64,000 nucleotides of DNA from an uncultured Parabacteroides sp. (GTDB lineage Bacteria > Bacteroidota > Bacteroidia > Bacteroidales > Tannerellaceae): NCBI GenBank assembly GCA_944325345.1, contig CALUZV010000011.1:24920-88919 (forward strand), written 5' to 3'. The position numbers and the translations under genes are program-made. The notes beneath the pieces were generated by a model. That model had not been told where the DNA came from and made no database searches. It worked only from the letters and a program-made list of their open reading frames with translations. Position 1 is the stretch's first letter. Each line of letters starts with the position of its first letter. Of this stretch, positions 4,787-53,139 are shown piece after piece.

Positions 4787-5121
4787 AAAAATTTACCCCG
4801 TATAAAAATATTTTTGGGGCAAATGCAAAAAAAATACCCTGCATACGGCGGTATATGGCGTAAGGAGGAATAAATTTACCCCTCCGCACCGGTGTAAACA
4901 GTGTAAATTCATACACAAATACTCCCATACACCGTTGTAAACGGCGTAAATTCATGCCTCAATACTCCCACTACACCGATGTAAAAGGCGCAAAAACGGC
5001 TTGTTTTACCCCCAAAATATCAATGTGAGGGGTAATATAAGCTGCATTTGCCCCAATTTATAAAATAAAAGGGGTGTATAAAAACAAATTTACCCCATAC
5101 ATGGATATGCATGGGGTAAAT
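4787..5121. repeat. Intergenic repeat block: 43-bp tandem units plus dispersed (A)AATTTACCCC / GGGGTAAA words
   Basis: GTAAA(C/A) recurs at 4894/4937/4981, GTAAATTCAT at 4903/4946 and AATACTCCCA at 4918/4961. TTTACCCC or its complement occurs at least 5 times. Confidence 0.7.
5078..5121 (-). terminator. Intrinsic terminator after the SusC/SusD/phosphoesterase operon
   Basis: Reverse strand: ATTTACCCCAT-GCATATCCATGT-ATGGGGTAAAT followed by TTGTTTTT. Confidence 0.55.
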
Positions 5122-13859: not shown

Positions 13860-14687
13860 TCACTGTACAACCGGGCGATCGTCCGGTTCTTCCTCTTCCG
13901 GCTTCTCGTCCTTTTTGTTCTTGTTGCGCGTCGCACGGCTTTTCAGCGTCGTTTTCTGCGTTTCAATATGCTGGTTCACAGCGCCGATGAAAGCGTCGTA
14001 CGTCGTGCCTTCTTCCAGGTTAGCCACTACATTAATCGTATCGACCATCGCGCGGTAAGCCTCGTCGGCCTCCTGCCGAGCTTCCTTCACGACACCCACC
14101 TCACGCGCGTCTTTCTCCTCCGCTTTTTGCTGGATGGCAAGCAGAAACGCGTCGTTTTCCTTGCGCAGGCGAGCCGTCCACGGGTCGATGCCGAGGAGCG
14201 TCCGTTTCTCGGACGGAATCGCCTCAAGGTCTTGCAAAAAGTTGTGCAGCGTCCCGCTTTCCGCCGTATAGGAGAGGTTCGTCGGGTCGCCGTACTTATC
14301 TACCACTTCTTCACCCTCGACAGCCGCCGCAGCGACATCCGCGTCGGGATGCATCGTCATCGCTTTCAGATAATTGCTGACGCCGCGCCAAGCGTAATCG
14401 CGAGCGTCGTCGGCCTTCGTAACCAGGGCGGAGGAGGCCAGTTTCTCGGAGTCCTTCAGCGCCTCGTCGAATTTTTCGAAAGCCGCCACGAACGCCGCCA
14501 CCTTTGCGTCCACACCTGCCTTGAAAGTACCGGCGGCGACAGACTGGACCGAAGGTTGCCCCGGATTTTCCTCCTCATCTTCTGTCTCGTATCCCATTTT
14601 CGGCAACTCCTTATAGACTAGTTGCTGGAAACCGAAATCCTCTTCGACCCAGAGACGACTCAGACCAAATTCTTTGATTTTACTCAT
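13860..14687 (-). CDS. Uncharacterised protein, paralog A (275 aa), helical with an acidic C-terminal tail ending DDRPVVQ
   Basis: Alignable by eye with 27286..28218: KIK..L.RL.VEEDFGFQQLV, ARDYAWRG.S.Y.KA, DKYG.PT.L, C-terminal DDRPVVQ. I chose the start at MSKIKEF (ATG 14687). Confidence 0.7.
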   Translation of the reverse strand: MSKIKEFGLSRLWVEEDFGFQQLVYKELPKMGYETEDEEENPGQPSVQSVAAGTFKAGVDAKVAAFVAAFEKFDEALKDSEKLASSALVTKADDARDYAWRGVSNYLKAMTMHPDADVAAAAVEGEEVVDKYGDPTNLSYTAESGTLHNFLQDLEAIPSEKRTLLGIDPWTARLRKENDAFLLAIQQKAEEKDAREVGVVKEARQEADEAYRAMVDTINVVANLEEGTTYDAFIGAVNQHIETQKTTLKSRATRNKNKKDEKPEEEEPDDRPVVQ

Positions 14688-14769
14688 AGGCAAAAGTTTT
14701 TTAGATGTATATTCTTGTAACGGAGGCGAAGTTACGAACTTCTTTTGAGAAAAATCAAATTTTTCGGGG

Positions 14770-15027
14770 AAAATATGTACGACAGGACAACTTTTTTTCA
14801 AGCGGAGCCGTCGTAGGCTACGACAGGACTACTTTTCGCCAAGAAGTGCTGTTGTAGCCTACGACAGCCTCGCTTTTTCCCAAGAAGTGCTTTCGTACCC
14901 TACGACAGGGCAAATAATCCTCAAGAACCCTTGTCGTACCCTACGACAGCCTCGCTTTTTCTCAAGTCGCTCTGGTGGTGAAAATTTGTTAACGGATTGA
15001 GCCGAATTTCTCTTGTCGTAGGCTTGG
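14770..15027. repeat. 41-bp phased array of the 8-3-8 dyad CTGTCGTA-NNN-TACGACAG
   Basis: TACGACAG occurs at 14778, 14819, 14860, 14901 and 14942. A left-arm remnant GTCGTAGG at 15015 is in phase (+82). Confidence 0.85.
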
Positions 15028-15031
15028 CAAC

Positions 15032-15063
15032 AAAAAAAGGGCGCATCTTTCGATGCGCCCCCC
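15032..15063 (-). terminator. Intrinsic terminator of fba
   Basis: Reverse strand: GGGCGCATC-GAAA-GATGCGCCC followed by TTTTTTT. Confidence 0.7.
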
Positions 15064-15091
15064 GTCTAATGAACCTTAACTATGTAAAGGA

Positions 15092-16090
15092 TTATAACTT
15101 ATCGTTAGAACCCAAAACATTCAAGATTTTGTGCTTGTAGAGCTTCTCCATTTCGTCGCGAGCCGGGCCGAGGTATTTGCGCGGGTCGAATTCAGCCGGT
15201 TTTTCAGCAAATACTTTGCGGATGGCAGCCGTCATAGCCAGACGAGAGTCGGAGTCGATGTTGATCTTGCAAACGGCAGACTTAGCAGCCTTGCGGAGCT
15301 CGTCTTCCGGAATACCGATGGCAGCCTCGAGGTTTCCACCGTACTTGTTGATCATTTCAACATATTCCTGAGGAACAGAAGAAGAACCGTGGAGAACGAT
15401 AGGGAAGCCCGGGAGTTTTTCCATCACAGCGTCCAAAACGTCGAATGCCAAAGGAGGAGGAACCAAGCGGCCAGTAGCCGGGTCAACGTGGCACTGTTCG
15501 GGTTTGAACTTGTATGCGCCGTGAGAAGTACCGATGGAGATAGCCAAAGAATCGCAACCTGTACGAGTTGAGAAGTCGATTACTTCTTCAGGGTTCGTAT
15601 AAGTGTGGTGTTCAGCGCAAACTTCATCTTCAACGCCGGCCAGGACACCGAGTTCGCCCTCAACCGTTACGTCGTACTGGTGAGCATAATCAACAACCTT
15701 CTTTGTCAAGGCAACGTTCTCTTCGTAAGGCAGATGAGAACCGTCGATCATGACAGAAGAGAAACCTAAGTCCACGCAAGACTTACACAATTCGAAGGAA
15801 TCGCCGTGGTCCAAGTGGAGGACGATCTGCGGGTTTTCGCAACCTAATTCCTTGGCATATTGAACAGCACCTTCAGCCATGTAGCGCAGCAACGTCTGGT
15901 TTGCATAGTTACGTGCACCTTTGGAAACCTGCAGGATAACCGGAGATTTGGTTTCTACGGAAGCCTTGATGATGGCCTGCAATTGTTCCATGTTGTTGAA
16001 GTTGAAAGCTGGGATGGCGTAACCGCCTTTGATGGCCTTGGCAAACATCTCTTTCGTGTTCACCAAACCTAATTCTTTGTAACTTACCAT
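15092..16090 (-). CDS. fba: Class II fructose-1,6-bisphosphate aldolase
   Basis: Motifs 'VLHLDHGDSFE', 'VEGELGVLAGVED' and 'ISIGTSHGAYKF'; 332 aa. Confidence 0.92.
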   Translation of the reverse strand: MVSYKELGLVNTKEMFAKAIKGGYAIPAFNFNNMEQLQAIIKASVETKSPVILQVSKGARNYANQTLLRYMAEGAVQYAKELGCENPQIVLHLDHGDSFELCKSCVDLGFSSVMIDGSHLPYEENVALTKKVVDYAHQYDVTVEGELGVLAGVEDEVCAEHHTYTNPEEVIDFSTRTGCDSLAISIGTSHGAYKFKPEQCHVDPATGRLVPPPLAFDVLDAVMEKLPGFPIVLHGSSSVPQEYVEMINKYGGNLEAAIGIPEDELRKAAKSAVCKINIDSDSRLAMTAAIRKVFAEKPAEFDPRKYLGPARDEMEKLYKHKILNVLGSNDKL

Positions 16091-22088: not shown

Positions 22089-22226
22089 GCGTAGCCCTAC
22101 GAAAACGCGCTGCCGTCGGCGGGAAGCTTTCGTACCCCTACGAAACGCTGCTGCCGTCAGCAGGAGGCTTTCGTACCCCTACGAAACGTCGCTGCCGTCG
22201 GCGGGAGGTTTTCGTACCCCTACGCC
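22089..22226. repeat. 41-bp tandem units carrying the hairpin TTTCGTA-CCCC-TACGAAA plus a GC-rich dyad
   Basis: TTTCGTACCCC occurs at 22128/22169/22210, with a degenerate copy at about 22090. The second element is CTGCTG-CCGT-CAGCAG or GCCG-T-CGGC. Confidence 0.85.
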
Positions 22227-27285: not shown

Positions 27286-28218
27286 TCACTGCACGACCGG
27301 ACGGTCGTCGTCTTCCTGTCCGCCAGGTTGTTCGTCCGGATTTTCCGGAGTCTCGTCCGGCGTGTCGGTCGGCTGGTCCGGAGTTTCAGAAGGGTTGTCC
27401 GGTGTGTCGGTCGGCTCTTCCGGCGTCTCGTCGGTATCGTCCGAGTCGTCGTCGCCGCGCGATTCGCGGTTTTTCAACGTCTTCTGTTGTTTTTCAATGT
27501 GCTTGTTTACAACAGCAATGAAATCCTTATAATTCTCGTCGCCTTCGACCTCGACGAGCATGTTAATCATATTGACCAGCGAGCGGTAGGCGTTGTCGGC
27601 CTCCTTTCGCGATTGTTTGATGATACCGACGTTGAGGGCCGCCTCTTCCGCCGCTTTCTGCTTCACCAGCTGGACGAACTTGTCGTTTTCGGTGCGGAGG
27701 CGTTCATTCCATTCATCGATACCCATTTCCGTACGTTCTTCCTCCGGCATAGCCTCCAGTTCCTGCAGCGTGTTGTGAATCACACCGCTTTCTTCCGTCT
27801 GCGTGAGCGACGTCGGGTTCCCGTACTTATCCAAAATATCCTTCGTCTTTGATGCGAGCGCGACGACCTCGCTTCTCGGATGCATCAGCAACGCTTTCAC
27901 ATAACTGCTCAAACCTCTCCAAGCATAGTCGCGTGCTTCGTCAGCTTGCGAAACTGCTGCGCTGGAAGGGGCTTGCGAGTCGCCTTTCAGTGCGGCATCG
28001 AAATTTTCGTGTGCCGTTTTGAAAGTCTCGACCTTCGTCTTCAGGGCCTCGGCAAACGGCGAGTCCAGCGCGCTCTGGACTACCGGGAGGTCCTCGTCGC
28101 CGCCTCCGCTTTCCGTTTCCAGCTTCAGGCGGGGCGTCTCGGCCACCACCAACTGTTGAAAACCGAAATCTTCTTCGACGTGGAGGCGAGTTAATGCTAA
28201 CTGTTTAATTTTAGTCAT
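27286..28218 (-). CDS. Uncharacterised protein, paralog B (310 aa), with a long (T/S)(D/E)TP(D/E)-rich acidic tail ending DDRPVVQ
   Basis: Same conserved blocks as 13860..14687. I chose the start at MTKIKQL (ATG 28218); the track start at 28224 is a TTG. Confidence 0.7.
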   Translation of the reverse strand: MTKIKQLALTRLHVEEDFGFQQLVVAETPRLKLETESGGGDEDLPVVQSALDSPFAEALKTKVETFKTAHENFDAALKGDSQAPSSAAVSQADEARDYAWRGLSSYVKALLMHPRSEVVALASKTKDILDKYGNPTSLTQTEESGVIHNTLQELEAMPEEERTEMGIDEWNERLRTENDKFVQLVKQKAAEEAALNVGIIKQSRKEADNAYRSLVNMINMLVEVEGDENYKDFIAVVNKHIEKQQKTLKNRESRGDDDSDDTDETPEEPTDTPDNPSETPDQPTDTPDETPENPDEQPGGQEDDDRPVVQ

Positions 28219-28299
28219 AGACAATTCCCTTTTTGGTAAAACAACAAATTATCGGTCGTAAAGGTAGGTAATTTCATTGAGAGGAAAATATTTTTCTAT

Positions 28300-28520
28300 T
28301 TAAAAAATCTACGACGGTGCATTTTTTTGGAAAAAAGAGCCGTCGTAGCCTACGACAGCCGATTTTTCTGGAAAAAAGCTCTGTCGTAGGGTACGACAGC
28401 CGATTTTTCTGGAAAAAAGCCCTGTCGTAGGGTACGACGACCGATTTTTCTGAAAAAAAGCCCTGTCGTAGGCTACGACAGCATTTCCTGGAAAAAGGAA
28501 GCACCGTCGTAGATTTTTAT
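28300..28520. repeat. 41-bp phased array of the dyad CTGTCGTA-SSS-TACGACAG alternating with TTTTTC-TG-GAAAAA
   Basis: TACGAC occurs at 28310/28351/28392/28433/28474. The array is bounded by an 18-bp perfect inverted repeat: AAAAATCTACGACGGTGC (28303-28320) and GCACCGTCGTAGATTTTT (28501-28518). Confidence 0.9.
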
Positions 28521-36034: not shown

Positions 36035-36400
36035 AAACATACCCCTATGTTTGGCACTTTCCCATCCGGAAGTATCAAACATAGGGGTATGTTTTGCCCT
36101 TTCCCGTCCGGAAGTGCCAAACATAGGGGTATGTTTGGGGGAAAAGATGGTGTGGTTAGCCAAACCCAGGGGTGGATTTGGCACTTTTAAACCGGAAAGT
36201 ATCAAACCCAGGGGTGGATTTGGCACTTTTGAACCGGAAAGTATCAAACCCAGGGGTGGTTTTGGTACTTTTGAACTGGAAAGTGCCAAACCCAGGGGTG
36301 GATTTGGCACTTTTGGATTGGAAAGTACCAAACCCAGGGGTGGATTTGGCACTTTTGAATTGGAAAATAACAAACCCACCCCTGGGTTTGGCACTTCGGC
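36035..36400. repeat. 42-bp phased hairpin array with two subfamilies (CAAACATA-GGGG-TATGTTTG x3, CCAAAcCCA-GGGG-TGGaTTTGG x6)
   Basis: CAAACATA occurs at 36076/36118. CAAACCC occurs at 36161/36203/36245/36287/36329/36371. The first and last units carry the loop as CCCC, i.e. flipped. Confidence 0.9.
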
Positions 36401-44542: not shown

Positions 44543-44733
44543 CCGCCCTCTCGGGCGGAGACGATCCGCCCTATAAGGCGGCAGTGTCCCGCCCAGTAAG
44601 GCGGCGATGAACCGCCCGAGAGGGCGGAGGTGTTCCGCCCGATAAGGCGGTAGTGTCCCGCCCAGTAAGGCGGCGATGAACCGCCCGAGAGGGCGGAGGT
44701 GTTCCGCCCGATAAGGCGGTAGTGTCCCGCCGT
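44543..44733. repeat. Nine CCGCCC-loop-GGCGG hairpins on a 23-bp period (69-bp super-period of three loop variants)
   Basis: CCGCCC occurs at 44543/44566/44589/44612/44635/44658/44681/44704/44727. The loops cycle GAGA(G), (G/T)ATAA, AGTAA. The last hairpin is followed by a T-run. Confidence 0.9.
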
Positions 44734-52869: not shown

Positions 52870-53139
52870 GTTTCCTGCAATTTGCAAGACGCTTGCGACG
52901 GCGTCGCGAGCGTCCTTACATTTGCAGAGTTGCTTGCGACGGCGTCGCAAAGCCCAAAATATTTGCAGAGTTCTTTGCGACGGCGTCGCAAGCGTCCTTT
53001 TTTTTGCAGAGTCGTTTGCGACGGCGTCGCAAGCGTCTTGTTTTTTGCAGAGTTCTTTGCGACGGCGTCGCAAACGTCTTGTTTTTTTGCAGAGCTCTTT
53101 GCGACGGCGTCGCAAGCTACTCTGCAAATTGCAGGAAAC
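52870..53139. repeat. Six 41-bp units carrying the palindrome TTGCGACG-G-CGTCGCAA, bounded by a 17-bp perfect inverted repeat
   Basis: GCGACGGCGTCGC occurs at 52895/52936/52977/53018/53059/53101. The terminal inverted repeat is GTTTCCTGCAATTTGCA (52870-52886) and TGCAAATTGCAGGAAAC (53123-53139). Confidence 0.9.

Follow-up and report, generated by a model that had tools for sequence, protein, structure and literature searches.

A 41-bp phased dyad array upstream of DUF6261 genes in Bacteroidales

The DUF6261 genes and their upstream arrays in the window

We analysed a 64,000-nucleotide stretch of DNA (the window) from an uncultured Parabacteroides sp., in which two genes of the DUF6261 family, paralogs A and B, are each preceded by a tandem array of short dyads. 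The two proteins are 49% identical. The exact paralog A protein is present on many gut-metagenome contigs, and a locus near-identical to that of the window was found in the NCBI metagenome-assembled genome GCA_949292405.1. The features at locus A are listed below by position in the window, with the strand where one applies.

13860..14687, minus strand: coding sequence of DUF6261 paralog A, 275 aa (Pfam PF19775, E 1.2e-34)
14688..14777, minus strand: promoter-proximal region and 5' leader of paralog A
14727-14734 and 14756-14763, minus strand: candidate -7 boxes of paralog A, TAACTTCG and AAAATTTG, both 5/6 matches; the choice of box is presumptive
14778..14966: whole tandem array A, period 41 (Tandem Repeats Finder), with 22-bp locus-specific spacers
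Within 14778..14966, gene-sense strand: array A spacer type, GCACTTCTTGGGAAAAAGCGAGG, kept in strains with other cores
14778..14785: promoter-proximal half-core TACGACAG, without a partner arm
14808..14826: core dyad 1, CCGTCGTA-GGC-TACGACAG, 1 mismatch
14849..14867: core dyad 2, CTGTTGTA-GCC-TACGACAG, 1 mismatch
14890..14908: core dyad 3, CTTTCGTA-CCC-TACGACAG, 1 mismatch
14931..14949: core dyad 4, TTGTCGTA-CCC-TACGACAG, 1 mismatch
14967..15011: non-repeat linker from the last full unit to the distal remnant, conserved among strains with type-1 cores
15012..15022: left-arm remnant cTTGTCGTAgg on the distal side, two periods past dyad 4, at the outer edge of the conserved block
15036..15063, minus strand: intrinsic terminator of the upstream fba gene, a 12-bp stem followed by a T run, which bounds array A and lies outside it

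The first-pass annotation had described array A as five octamers exactly 41 bp apart, four of them serving as the invariant right arm of an 8-3-8 dyad, and its coordinates were confirmed. The octamer TACGACAG starts at 14778, 14819, 14860, 14901 and 14942 (n = 5, spacing exactly 41 bp). It occurs 13 times in the window against 0.96 expected, a count that 0/100 shuffles reached. A search of the window for the full dyad CTGTCGTA-NNN-TACGACAG with at most 3 mismatches returned 8 matches against 0.18 expected, and these lie only at 14808, 14849, 14890 and 14931 in array A and at 28340, 28381, 28422 and 28463 in array B. The dyads of array A carry 1 mismatch apiece, in the left arm every time. The distal remnant also stood up: its GTCGTA (15015-15020) is exactly 82 bp, or two periods past the last dyad, from the GTCGTA at 14933. 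Between strains, the loop of core dyad 2 is polymorphic (ggc or ccc on the gene-sense strand), as is that of core dyad 4 (ggg or gtg). The promoter-proximal region contains a 6-bp hairpin, GAAGTT-cgt-AACTTC, and an inserted Gp49/HTH gene pair sits right past the distal remnant in other strains.

Paralog B has the same layout, with period 41 by Tandem Repeats Finder and dyads spanning 28340-28481.

27286..28218, minus strand: coding sequence of DUF6261 paralog B, 310 aa (Pfam DUF6261, E 4e-31)
28259..28266, minus strand: candidate -7 box of paralog B, TACCTTTA, proposed from the motif, 83 bp downstream of the last full core centre
28310..28511: array B, with the proximal half-core TACGACGG at 28310
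28340-28358, 28381-28399, 28422-28440 and 28463-28481: dyads of array B, at most 2 mismatches each
28504-28511: distal left-arm remnant of array B, CCGTCGTA, one period after 28463
Gene-sense strand: array B spacers, GGGCTTTTTTCCAGAAAAATCGG

The half-core nearest the gene is 91 bp from the start codon of paralog A (14687) and 92 bp from that of paralog B (28218), offsets that agree with the first reading of the sequence. The same reading called the spacers of the two arrays unrelated, which overstates their difference: they share TTTTTCT...AA.AAG, with 10/22 positions identical in an ungapped alignment, and only 180/5000 shuffles align as well, so that the two are weakly related. P0100, a third paralog from this species, carries a 41-bp array of its own, built on a different dyad, TTTCCTGC-c-GCAGGAAA.

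The 3' ends of the A and B coding sequences are identical at 20/24 nt, which reflects ordinary codon conservation over a DDRPVVQ tail. The AlphaFold model of DUF6261 (pLDDT 83) is a long helical bundle for which Foldseek returned nothing from the PDB at E <0.001, and a sequence search against the PDB gave no match. We rejected the idea that DUF6261 is its own DNA-binding regulator, given a helical-bundle model that matches no DNA-binding fold and the empty PDB sequence search. An association with phages or defence was likewise discarded, as only 2 homolog loci were present in IMG/VR and no arrays were found in viral contigs; DUF6261 has no PADLOC or PHROGs match.

Arrays across the DUF6261 family and their register with the predicted promoter

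We examined 80 loci on metagenome contigs that encode DUF6261 homologs (40-48% identity). Tandem Repeats Finder called an array of period 41, 42 or 82 at 53/80 of them, spanning positions of about -260 to -90 relative to the start codon. Because many of the sampled sites share descent, site counts overstate the number of independent events. The strongest autocorrelation lag was 41, 42, 82 or 83 in 32/34 non-redundant upstream regions, compared with 17/204 control windows taken from those same DUF6261 loci. Four further lineages recovered by a second protein search show the same 41/42-bp pattern, or twice that. Overall, about 95% of the sampled DUF6261 upstream regions carry an array, across proteins that are just 40-50% identical. 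Throughout the ~398 kb of homolog loci, arrays of period 41, 42 or 82 were confined to the DNA directly upstream of the DUF6261 gene, with 0 elsewhere. Array A is the local copy of a conserved upstream control-region design, comprising 1-5 tandem 41-bp units and present at nearly all sampled Bacteroidales DUF6261 genes. We found no description of these arrays in the searchable literature.

We further analysed the position of the arrays relative to candidate promoters. A perfect Bacteroidetes -7 box (TAnnTTTG) occurs in 57/80 loci and clusters at -51, -53 and -81 from the start codon. Core centres are 41.0 bp apart (42.0 in one clade), and as 41 bp corresponds to about four helical turns, successive cores are presented on one side of the duplex. 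Measured to the start of the best -7-box match, the centre of the last full core is 81-83 bp upstream in eight regions whose core sequences differ (L112, L136, L138, L142, L148, L149, array B and, if its 5/6 box at -47 is real, array A). The distance is 72 bp in L121 and L145, which belong to one clade. Both A and B then have a half-core one more period nearer the gene. Judged by these core-to-box distances, which are based on motif matches, the arrays appear to lie immediately upstream of the predicted core promoter and in fixed phase with it. The presence of an array upstream of nearly all sampled homologs, in register with the predicted promoter, supports the view that it is a selected cis-element tied to the DUF6261 family and not neutral repeat DNA, as the first-pass annotation had argued.

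This distribution has to be weighed against a non-regulatory origin, in which the array would be a selfish or neutral minisatellite like those of Porphyromonas gingivalis, persisting through slippage and concerted evolution, with palindromes maintained by templated repair rather than by function. Bacteroidales do carry 41-nt and 23-nt tandem repeats within MITE-like elements (PMC4596501, PMC2575886). The window itself has five other 41-43-bp arrays, with unrelated palindromes, and one 23-bp array, all at unrelated intergenic sites. Whole-unit changes in copy number between strains, fast core turnover and the mixing of core types in one array, described below, are also what a minisatellite would produce. 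Such an element is nevertheless hard to reconcile with ~95% retention at the same place and in the same -7-box register upstream of such divergent proteins, or with the lack of 41/42/82-bp arrays elsewhere in the 398 kb from other lineages. Its outer half-sites are conserved, and the core is not dispersed, being found in the window at A and B only. We therefore consider a neutral or selfish repeat quite unlikely.

The P. gingivalis elements MITEPgRS (MITE464) and BrickBuilt are likewise intergenic repeats of Bacteroidales, made of tandem 41-nt (PgRS) or 23-nt (BrickBuilt) units that vary in number, and the window shows both of these periods (41/42 bp and 23 bp). BrickBuilt elements have predicted stem-loops, lie near genes and show promoter activity (PMC4596501, PMC2575886). 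Both are MITEs that have leader and tail segments, end in IS5-type terminal inverted repeats and are scattered over unrelated loci in 11-20 copies. When MITEPgRS and the DUF6261 array are compared by description, rather than by repeat sequence, the latter differs in serving one gene family, in its fixed distance from the predicted promoter and, within the window, in having its core at the paralogs only. It shares the 41-nt tandem repeats with these MITEs and lacks dispersed copies at unrelated loci, both in the window and at the loci of other lineages. No IS-type terminal inverted repeats flanking A and B were apparent when the sequences were read by eye. The arrays do end in inverted half-cores, a consequence of the dyad units themselves.

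Two other kinds of repeat were considered. REP/BIME sequences associated with RAYT transposases are short imperfect palindromes common to many loci and variable between strains, sometimes in regular tandem arrays, and in this they resemble the same core joined to locus-specific linkers seen here. REPs differ in being dispersed by the hundreds, mostly at the 3' ends of genes, with no single gene family or promoter register; the 64-kb window shows no such dispersal of the core. A CRISPR array was rejected because spacers within each array are related and the units are too short (19-bp core, 22-bp spacer); no cas genes were apparent among the open reading frames listed next to the arrays.

The link between dyad and gene family proposed in the first-pass annotation held in the window, where the 19-mer occurs at A and B only, but did not extend to the exact sequence elsewhere, as the same 19-mer is found at unrelated loci in other genera. 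A scan for the perfect dyad in one genome per species, covering 185,579 species, returned 75 stretches, of which 0 adjoin a DUF6261 gene and 0 form arrays. The Bacteroidales matches in that scan (Phocaeicola, Bacteroides and Alistipes) are hairpins resembling trp-leader terminators.

No conserved regulator adjoining the DUF6261 genes was found among 34 loci. An HU-HIG gene adjoins the DUF6261 gene in 8/34 loci, where it is directly upstream, and a sigma-54-type activator does so in 7/34. Each is limited to one clade, and both were rejected as a conserved neighbouring regulator on that ground.

Sequence, symmetry and folding of the core

Unit sequences are strongly unlike between lineages, while the main dyads have their outer five bp in common. 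These define a 19-bp family core, CTGTC-N9-GACAG, which is ~67-fold enriched upstream of the homologs relative to flanking DNA. Allowing at most 1 mismatch, 34 copies were found in 11.8 kb of non-redundant upstream DNA versus 7 in 162 kb of flanks (2.87 and 0.043 per kb, respectively), and other spacings were near zero. In a matrix of 60 sites, positions T4, C5, G15 and A16 are 87-98% conserved and the outer positions overall 80-98%, and the core flanks tend to AAGC-n-...-n-GCTT. The prediction that the dyad would be conserved upstream of homologs was therefore borne out for the arrays and for the outer CTGTC/GACAG half-sites, and failed for the inner core, whose 3-4 bp per arm are not conserved.

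Instead, the inner core is held by symmetry. Its three inner pairs vary in sequence and are complementary in 78-82% of sites, with counts spread over several pairings (GC 16 / CG 13 for the first; CG 10 / UA 8 / AU 7 / GC 4 for the second; CG 14 / AU 8 / GC 4 for the third). Across 34 distinct 33-mers, the covariation score of the inner pairs is 0.357, compared with 0.176 in shuffles, 0/500 of which reach it, and with 0.08-0.13 when the partner columns are slid as a control. The symmetry constraint on the dyad suspected at first reading is thus upheld. Folded as DNA, single cores give hairpins of -5.9 to -6.9 kcal/mol (z -3.4 to -4.5), and no positions vary more between strains than the 3-nt loops.

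The symmetry shows no preference for a strand. G:U-type and C:A-type mismatches are equally common, so that sense and antisense are even, and by folding energy 8 arrays favour the sense strand and 12 the antisense strand. This indicates that the symmetry belongs to duplex DNA, or to both strands equally, and not to one transcript, and a one-strand RNA structure was rejected on these grounds.

The same measurements bear on an RNA-level or termination element, in which the array would be transcribed as a string of hairpins, forming a leader or a small RNA, or would act as tandem bidirectional terminators insulating the DUF6261 promoter. Array B received 9 terminator-like calls over both strands versus 0.4 in shuffles, every unit scoring both ways, and array A received 2, both on the + strand. 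The same 19-mer is an apparent trp-leader terminator stem in Phocaeicola and Bacteroides, and the RNA folding z-scores of the arrays range from -3 to -10. This explanation is countered by the even folding energies and wobble-type mismatches of the two strands, and by the T run after the hairpin, which is missing in most other lineages (for example in those with GTCGAC and GTCCCC types). A conserved -7 box also sits between array and gene. In Rfam 15 the window's only match at the gathering threshold is a tRNA, the array region giving only sub-threshold noise, and no Rfam family matches the array by gathering threshold or by E-value. We regard a role in RNA or termination as very improbable.

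Part of the folding evidence would fit an element recognised by its structure, whose cores would extrude as cruciforms or hairpins when the DNA is negatively supercoiled, or when it is single-stranded in the course of replication. Such an element could act directly next to the promoter, as an insulator or supercoil sink, or serve as the target of an HU/IHF-type protein that recognises structure and not sequence. Inner stems that covary freely, polymorphic loops and the DNA folding of whole arrays (z -6 to -10 on both strands) all speak for it, as does the HU-HIG gene that is the immediate upstream neighbour in one clade. The conservation in sequence of the outer 5 bp per arm across lineages is more than structure alone would need, however, and the array persists in one lineage after its inner symmetry was lost. 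Stems of 8 bp are also short for cruciform extrusion in vivo. As for HU-HIG, Burroughs et al. (PMC5499826) described no conserved linkage to other genes and considered a role as transcription factor improbable for it. Taken together, a structure-based element seems unlikely to us.

The core also recalls two known operators. The CIRCE element bound by HrcA, TTAGCACTC-N9-GAGTGCTAA, is likewise an inverted repeat with a 9-bp spacer, located at promoters and conserved over wide phylogenetic distances. It differs from the DUF6261 core in its half-site, is usually present as a single copy, precedes heat-shock operons and shows neither 41-bp repetition nor core swapping. The LexA SOS box, CTGT-N8-ACAG, has the same outer CTGT/ACAG half-sites, which are spaced here as CTGT-N11-ACAG with no SOS genes, and Bacteroidetes LexA-like repressors bind GGA-N5-TCC or CTAA-N5-TTAG (PMC8565304). 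A LexA box was rejected, since both spacing and motif are wrong and an N8 spacer between the 5-mers gave 0 upstream matches.

Exchange of cores and a possible operator function

We further compared the arrays between closely related strains. Unit number varies: L126 has 1 unit and L112 has 3, with coding sequences 100% identical over 783 nt and the same flanks, and a sister lineage of the two (90% nucleotide identity) has two or three. Multiple units are thus not essential, as a strain with a single one exists. In the window's own species, the unit number of array A is constant across 14 strain loci and the window.

Core sequence varies in another manner. In a close relative, the ortholog of paralog B has the same synteny, with a 2.5-kb locus 94% identical and a protein 98% identical to those of the window. 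It keeps the same unit number and the T-run/A-run spacers, yet its cores are CTGTTGAC-ggc-GTTTCCAG. Between these B orthologs the DNA on the far side of the array is ~99% identical, and the promoter-proximal 90 bp have also diverged. At locus A, strains with a 96% identical paralog A protein keep the A-type spacer GCACTTCTTGAGAAAAAGCGAG and have cores of CTGGCAAC-ggc-GTTTTCAG and CYGGCGAC-gag-GTYGCCGG. The two allelic forms at each locus compare as follows.

Locus A, two allelic forms: cores 36/76 identical (47%), spacers 52/66 identical (79%)
Locus B, two allelic forms: cores 31/76 identical (41%), spacers 50/66 identical (76%)

The first-pass annotation had seen conserved cores and diverged spacers across an old duplication. 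The comparison of near-identical strains reverses this picture, as these keep their spacers (76-79%) and replace their cores (41-47%). The type-2 cores at A and B are themselves alike, the best-matching units being identical at 15/19 positions, which means that in both classes the core is common to loci with differing spacers. In the window, A and B have one core in common despite diverged proteins, promoters and spacers.

The two loci need not change together. On contig NODE_93_length_241861, A is of type 1 (GTCGTA core) and B of type 2 (CTGTTGAC..GTTTCCAG core), so that the core states of (A,B) are (1,1) in the window and (1,2) on this contig; the state (2,2) presumably exists too. Strict within-genome co-variation of A and B cores was rejected on the basis of this contig, and the core shared by A and B in the window is consequently a recent, exchangeable state. 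At least three core types coexist in the species (GTCGTA, CTGTTGAC/GTTTCCAG and TTCCTGC..GCAGGAA), and core types are mixed within single arrays. One lineage has cores that lost their inner symmetry (CTGTTGAC-ggc-GTTTCCAG) and has kept the array. Altogether, the cores are a module that is exchanged surprisingly fast between paralogous loci and strains, while the spacers are locus-specific. A plausible route is that a single core moves between arrays and that slippage of units then spreads it through the array, which would fit the mixed core types inside one array.

The function that we find most likely, with a probability of roughly 45%, is a phased operator array for a putative dimeric DNA-binding protein acting on the adjacent promoter. 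Each unit consists of a 19-bp two-fold-symmetric core (here CTGTCGTA-N3-TACGACAG) and a 22-bp locus-specific spacer. The cores would be operators whose sequence the dimer reads; its binding, which may be cooperative, would run along a single face of the helix immediately upstream of the core promoter and set the expression level of the DUF6261 gene. The strain-variable number of units could tune the strength of this control, and the cores are exchanged as a module among paralogous loci and strains. Much of what this reading builds on was observed directly, namely the anatomy of the array, its link to the gene family, its phasing, its symmetry and covariation, the variation in copy number and the exchange of cores. 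An operator array accounts best for the conserved outer half-sites, the 41-bp phasing, the register with the -7 box, the unbiased two-fold symmetry and the cores common to several loci.

Several observations count against operators. A candidate binding protein was not found, and no regulator is conserved beside the DUF6261 genes. An inner core that covaries while its sequence is not conserved is what one would sooner expect of a base-paired hairpin than of a protein-binding site. With at least three core types in one species, a protein model requires several readers or one flexible reader. The lineage that lost its inner core symmetry and the single-unit strain are further difficulties, and the promoter position relies on a motif match that for paralog A is just 5/6.

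Core exchange also raises the prospect of an exchangeable address code, in which DUF6261 promoters would be wired to fast-diversifying trans-acting readers of 19-bp dyads, one candidate being the lineage-expanded HU-HIG proteins, whose genes adjoin DUF6261 genes in one clade. Between strains, a paralog could then switch readers through replacement of its cores alone, with the spacers retained. We hold this to be a long shot, on a par with the structure-based element. If true, it would represent a fast-evolving cis-trans regulatory system, possibly engaged in biological conflict, that has no described counterpart.

An array of operators at this spacing has a known likeness in the sopC centromere of the F plasmid, where 12 tandem 43-bp repeats each contain a short inverted repeat bound by SopB. 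Both consist of tandem units of ~41-43 bp with one short dyad each, in a phased array that binds, or here would bind, a dimeric protein. The sopC array is a plasmid partition site accompanied by a ParA/ParB-type operon, whereas the arrays described here are chromosomal and promoter-adjacent, have no partition genes nearby and vary in their cores. The repeat tracts upstream of Neisseria and Haemophilus adhesin genes are likewise strain-variable tandem repeats upstream of a promoter; their units of 1-7 bp alter promoter spacing, whereas the 41-bp units with a dyad found here preserve helical phase. We read the DUF6261 array as a putative tandem operator or variable-repeat promoter array whose modular mode of evolution is unusual.

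Genes of the uncharacterised DUF6261 family are widespread among gut Bacteroidales, and it is common for one genome to have several paralogs. Their promoters have one of the most regular cis-architectures seen in Bacteroidales, and the array offers a testable handle on transcription control in this order, which is poorly understood and unlike the E. coli paradigm. The finding also ties in with the 41-nt and 23-nt repeats of Porphyromonas gingivalis, which are long familiar and as yet unexplained. Natural variants in unit number and core type are available in an exact 41-bp phased dyad array, and a pan-genome association could use the core types to find the binding factor. Core swapping with locus-specific spacers provides an unusually clean natural experiment in regulatory rewiring.

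Occurrences of the dyad away from DUF6261 genes

The dyad of arrays A and B, the tandem 41-bp arrays upstream of DUF6261 paralogs A and B, was also found at loci with no link to this gene family. In genomes of Phocaeicola, Bacteroides and Alistipes, a GGG...CCC hairpin with a T run behind it is built around the perfect 19-mer CTGTCGTAnnnTACGACAG (L021, L029, L036, L045, L046, L048, L055, L060-L062, L069, L072 and L077). The hairpin is flanked by a leader with TGGTGG (two Trp codons) and by a TrpB-like gene beginning MKTYQVNEEGYYGEFGG; it looks like a trp-leader attenuator terminator and bears no relation to DUF6261. In the distant lineage of Fodinibius salsisoli, a dyad cluster lies 3' of a gene end (L041, 5222-5320), with CTGTCGTAGGCTACGACAG, then ACGTCGTAATCTACGACAG 45 bp further on and more half-sites after it. 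This locus has neither the 41-bp period nor a DUF6261 gene.

Neighbors and coding features of DUF6261 genes

Two clades carry distinctive genes next to DUF6261. In one (L089, L095, L099-L109, L140, L174), a HU-HIG (PF18291) gene, whose product ends in an acidic ...ENPLG tail, sits directly upstream of the DUF6261 gene and has its own upstream tandem array with a period of 23 bp (unit CAAGGTAGCTACCAAGCCACCCC, dyad GGTAGCTACC), at roughly -830 to -772 relative to the start of DUF6261. In the other (L121, L133, L145, L146, L151, L154, L156), a sigma-54-type activator gene encoding an AAA+ domain and a Fis-type HTH is divergent from the DUF6261 array region, and no -24/-12 promoter is evident upstream of the DUF6261 gene in this clade.

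Within the family itself, a short (D/E)DRPxV motif appears twice, once following the N-terminal helix and once at the C-terminal end. The paralog B coding sequence also contains an internal 21/42-bp tandem repeat (27332-27443) that encodes the protein's repetitive acidic tail (PDxTPE...).

The interval between fba and array A, and assembly breaks

In many strains (L080-L083, L188-L197), the interval from fba to array A carries an inserted gene pair encoding a Gp49 (HigB-like) toxin and an HTH antitoxin, directly past the distal half-core remnant of the array, as seen by comparison with window positions 15023-15091; the window strain lacks the pair. At 15029-15092 (-), a sub-threshold match to FopS, a Bacteroidetes small-RNA family in Rfam, overlaps the fba terminator. 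It scores 25.6 bits (E 0.11) where the family's gathering score is 56, and probably reflects no more than terminator similarity.

Two short-read contigs with paralog B (L179, L180) stop inside the array, 153 bp upstream of the gene. Because assemblies break at the array repeats, copy-number variation of the arrays may be under-sampled.

Further tandem arrays in the window

At 44554-44731, with the end of one gene on one side and an lpxD-like gene on the other, the window carries a tandem array with a period of 23 bp, a super-period of 69 bp and the hairpin unit GGGCGGA-ggtgt-TCCGCCC. It shares the 23-nt period with the BrickBuilt minisatellite of P. gingivalis.

Besides arrays A and B, the window has five further tandem arrays with a period of 41-43 bp and unrelated palindromic cores:

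Additional 41-43-bp arrays, with core or unit
4887-4994, CCGTTgtaAACGG
22090-22224, TTTCGTAccccTACGAAA
36046-36138 and 36160-36396, CCAAACATAGGGGTATGTTTGG and a related unit
52893-53117, TTGCGACGGCGTCGCAA

Their sites are unrelated and intergenic (upstream of murQ, upstream of pruA, between the convergent cdd and pgm), and a 17-bp inverted repeat, GTTTCCTGCAATTTGCA / TGCAAATTGCAGGAAAC, lies on either side of the array at 52893. Since no extra arrays of such period occur in ∼398 kb of DUF6261 homolog loci from other lineages, 41-bp hairpin arrays seem to have expanded in the window's species.
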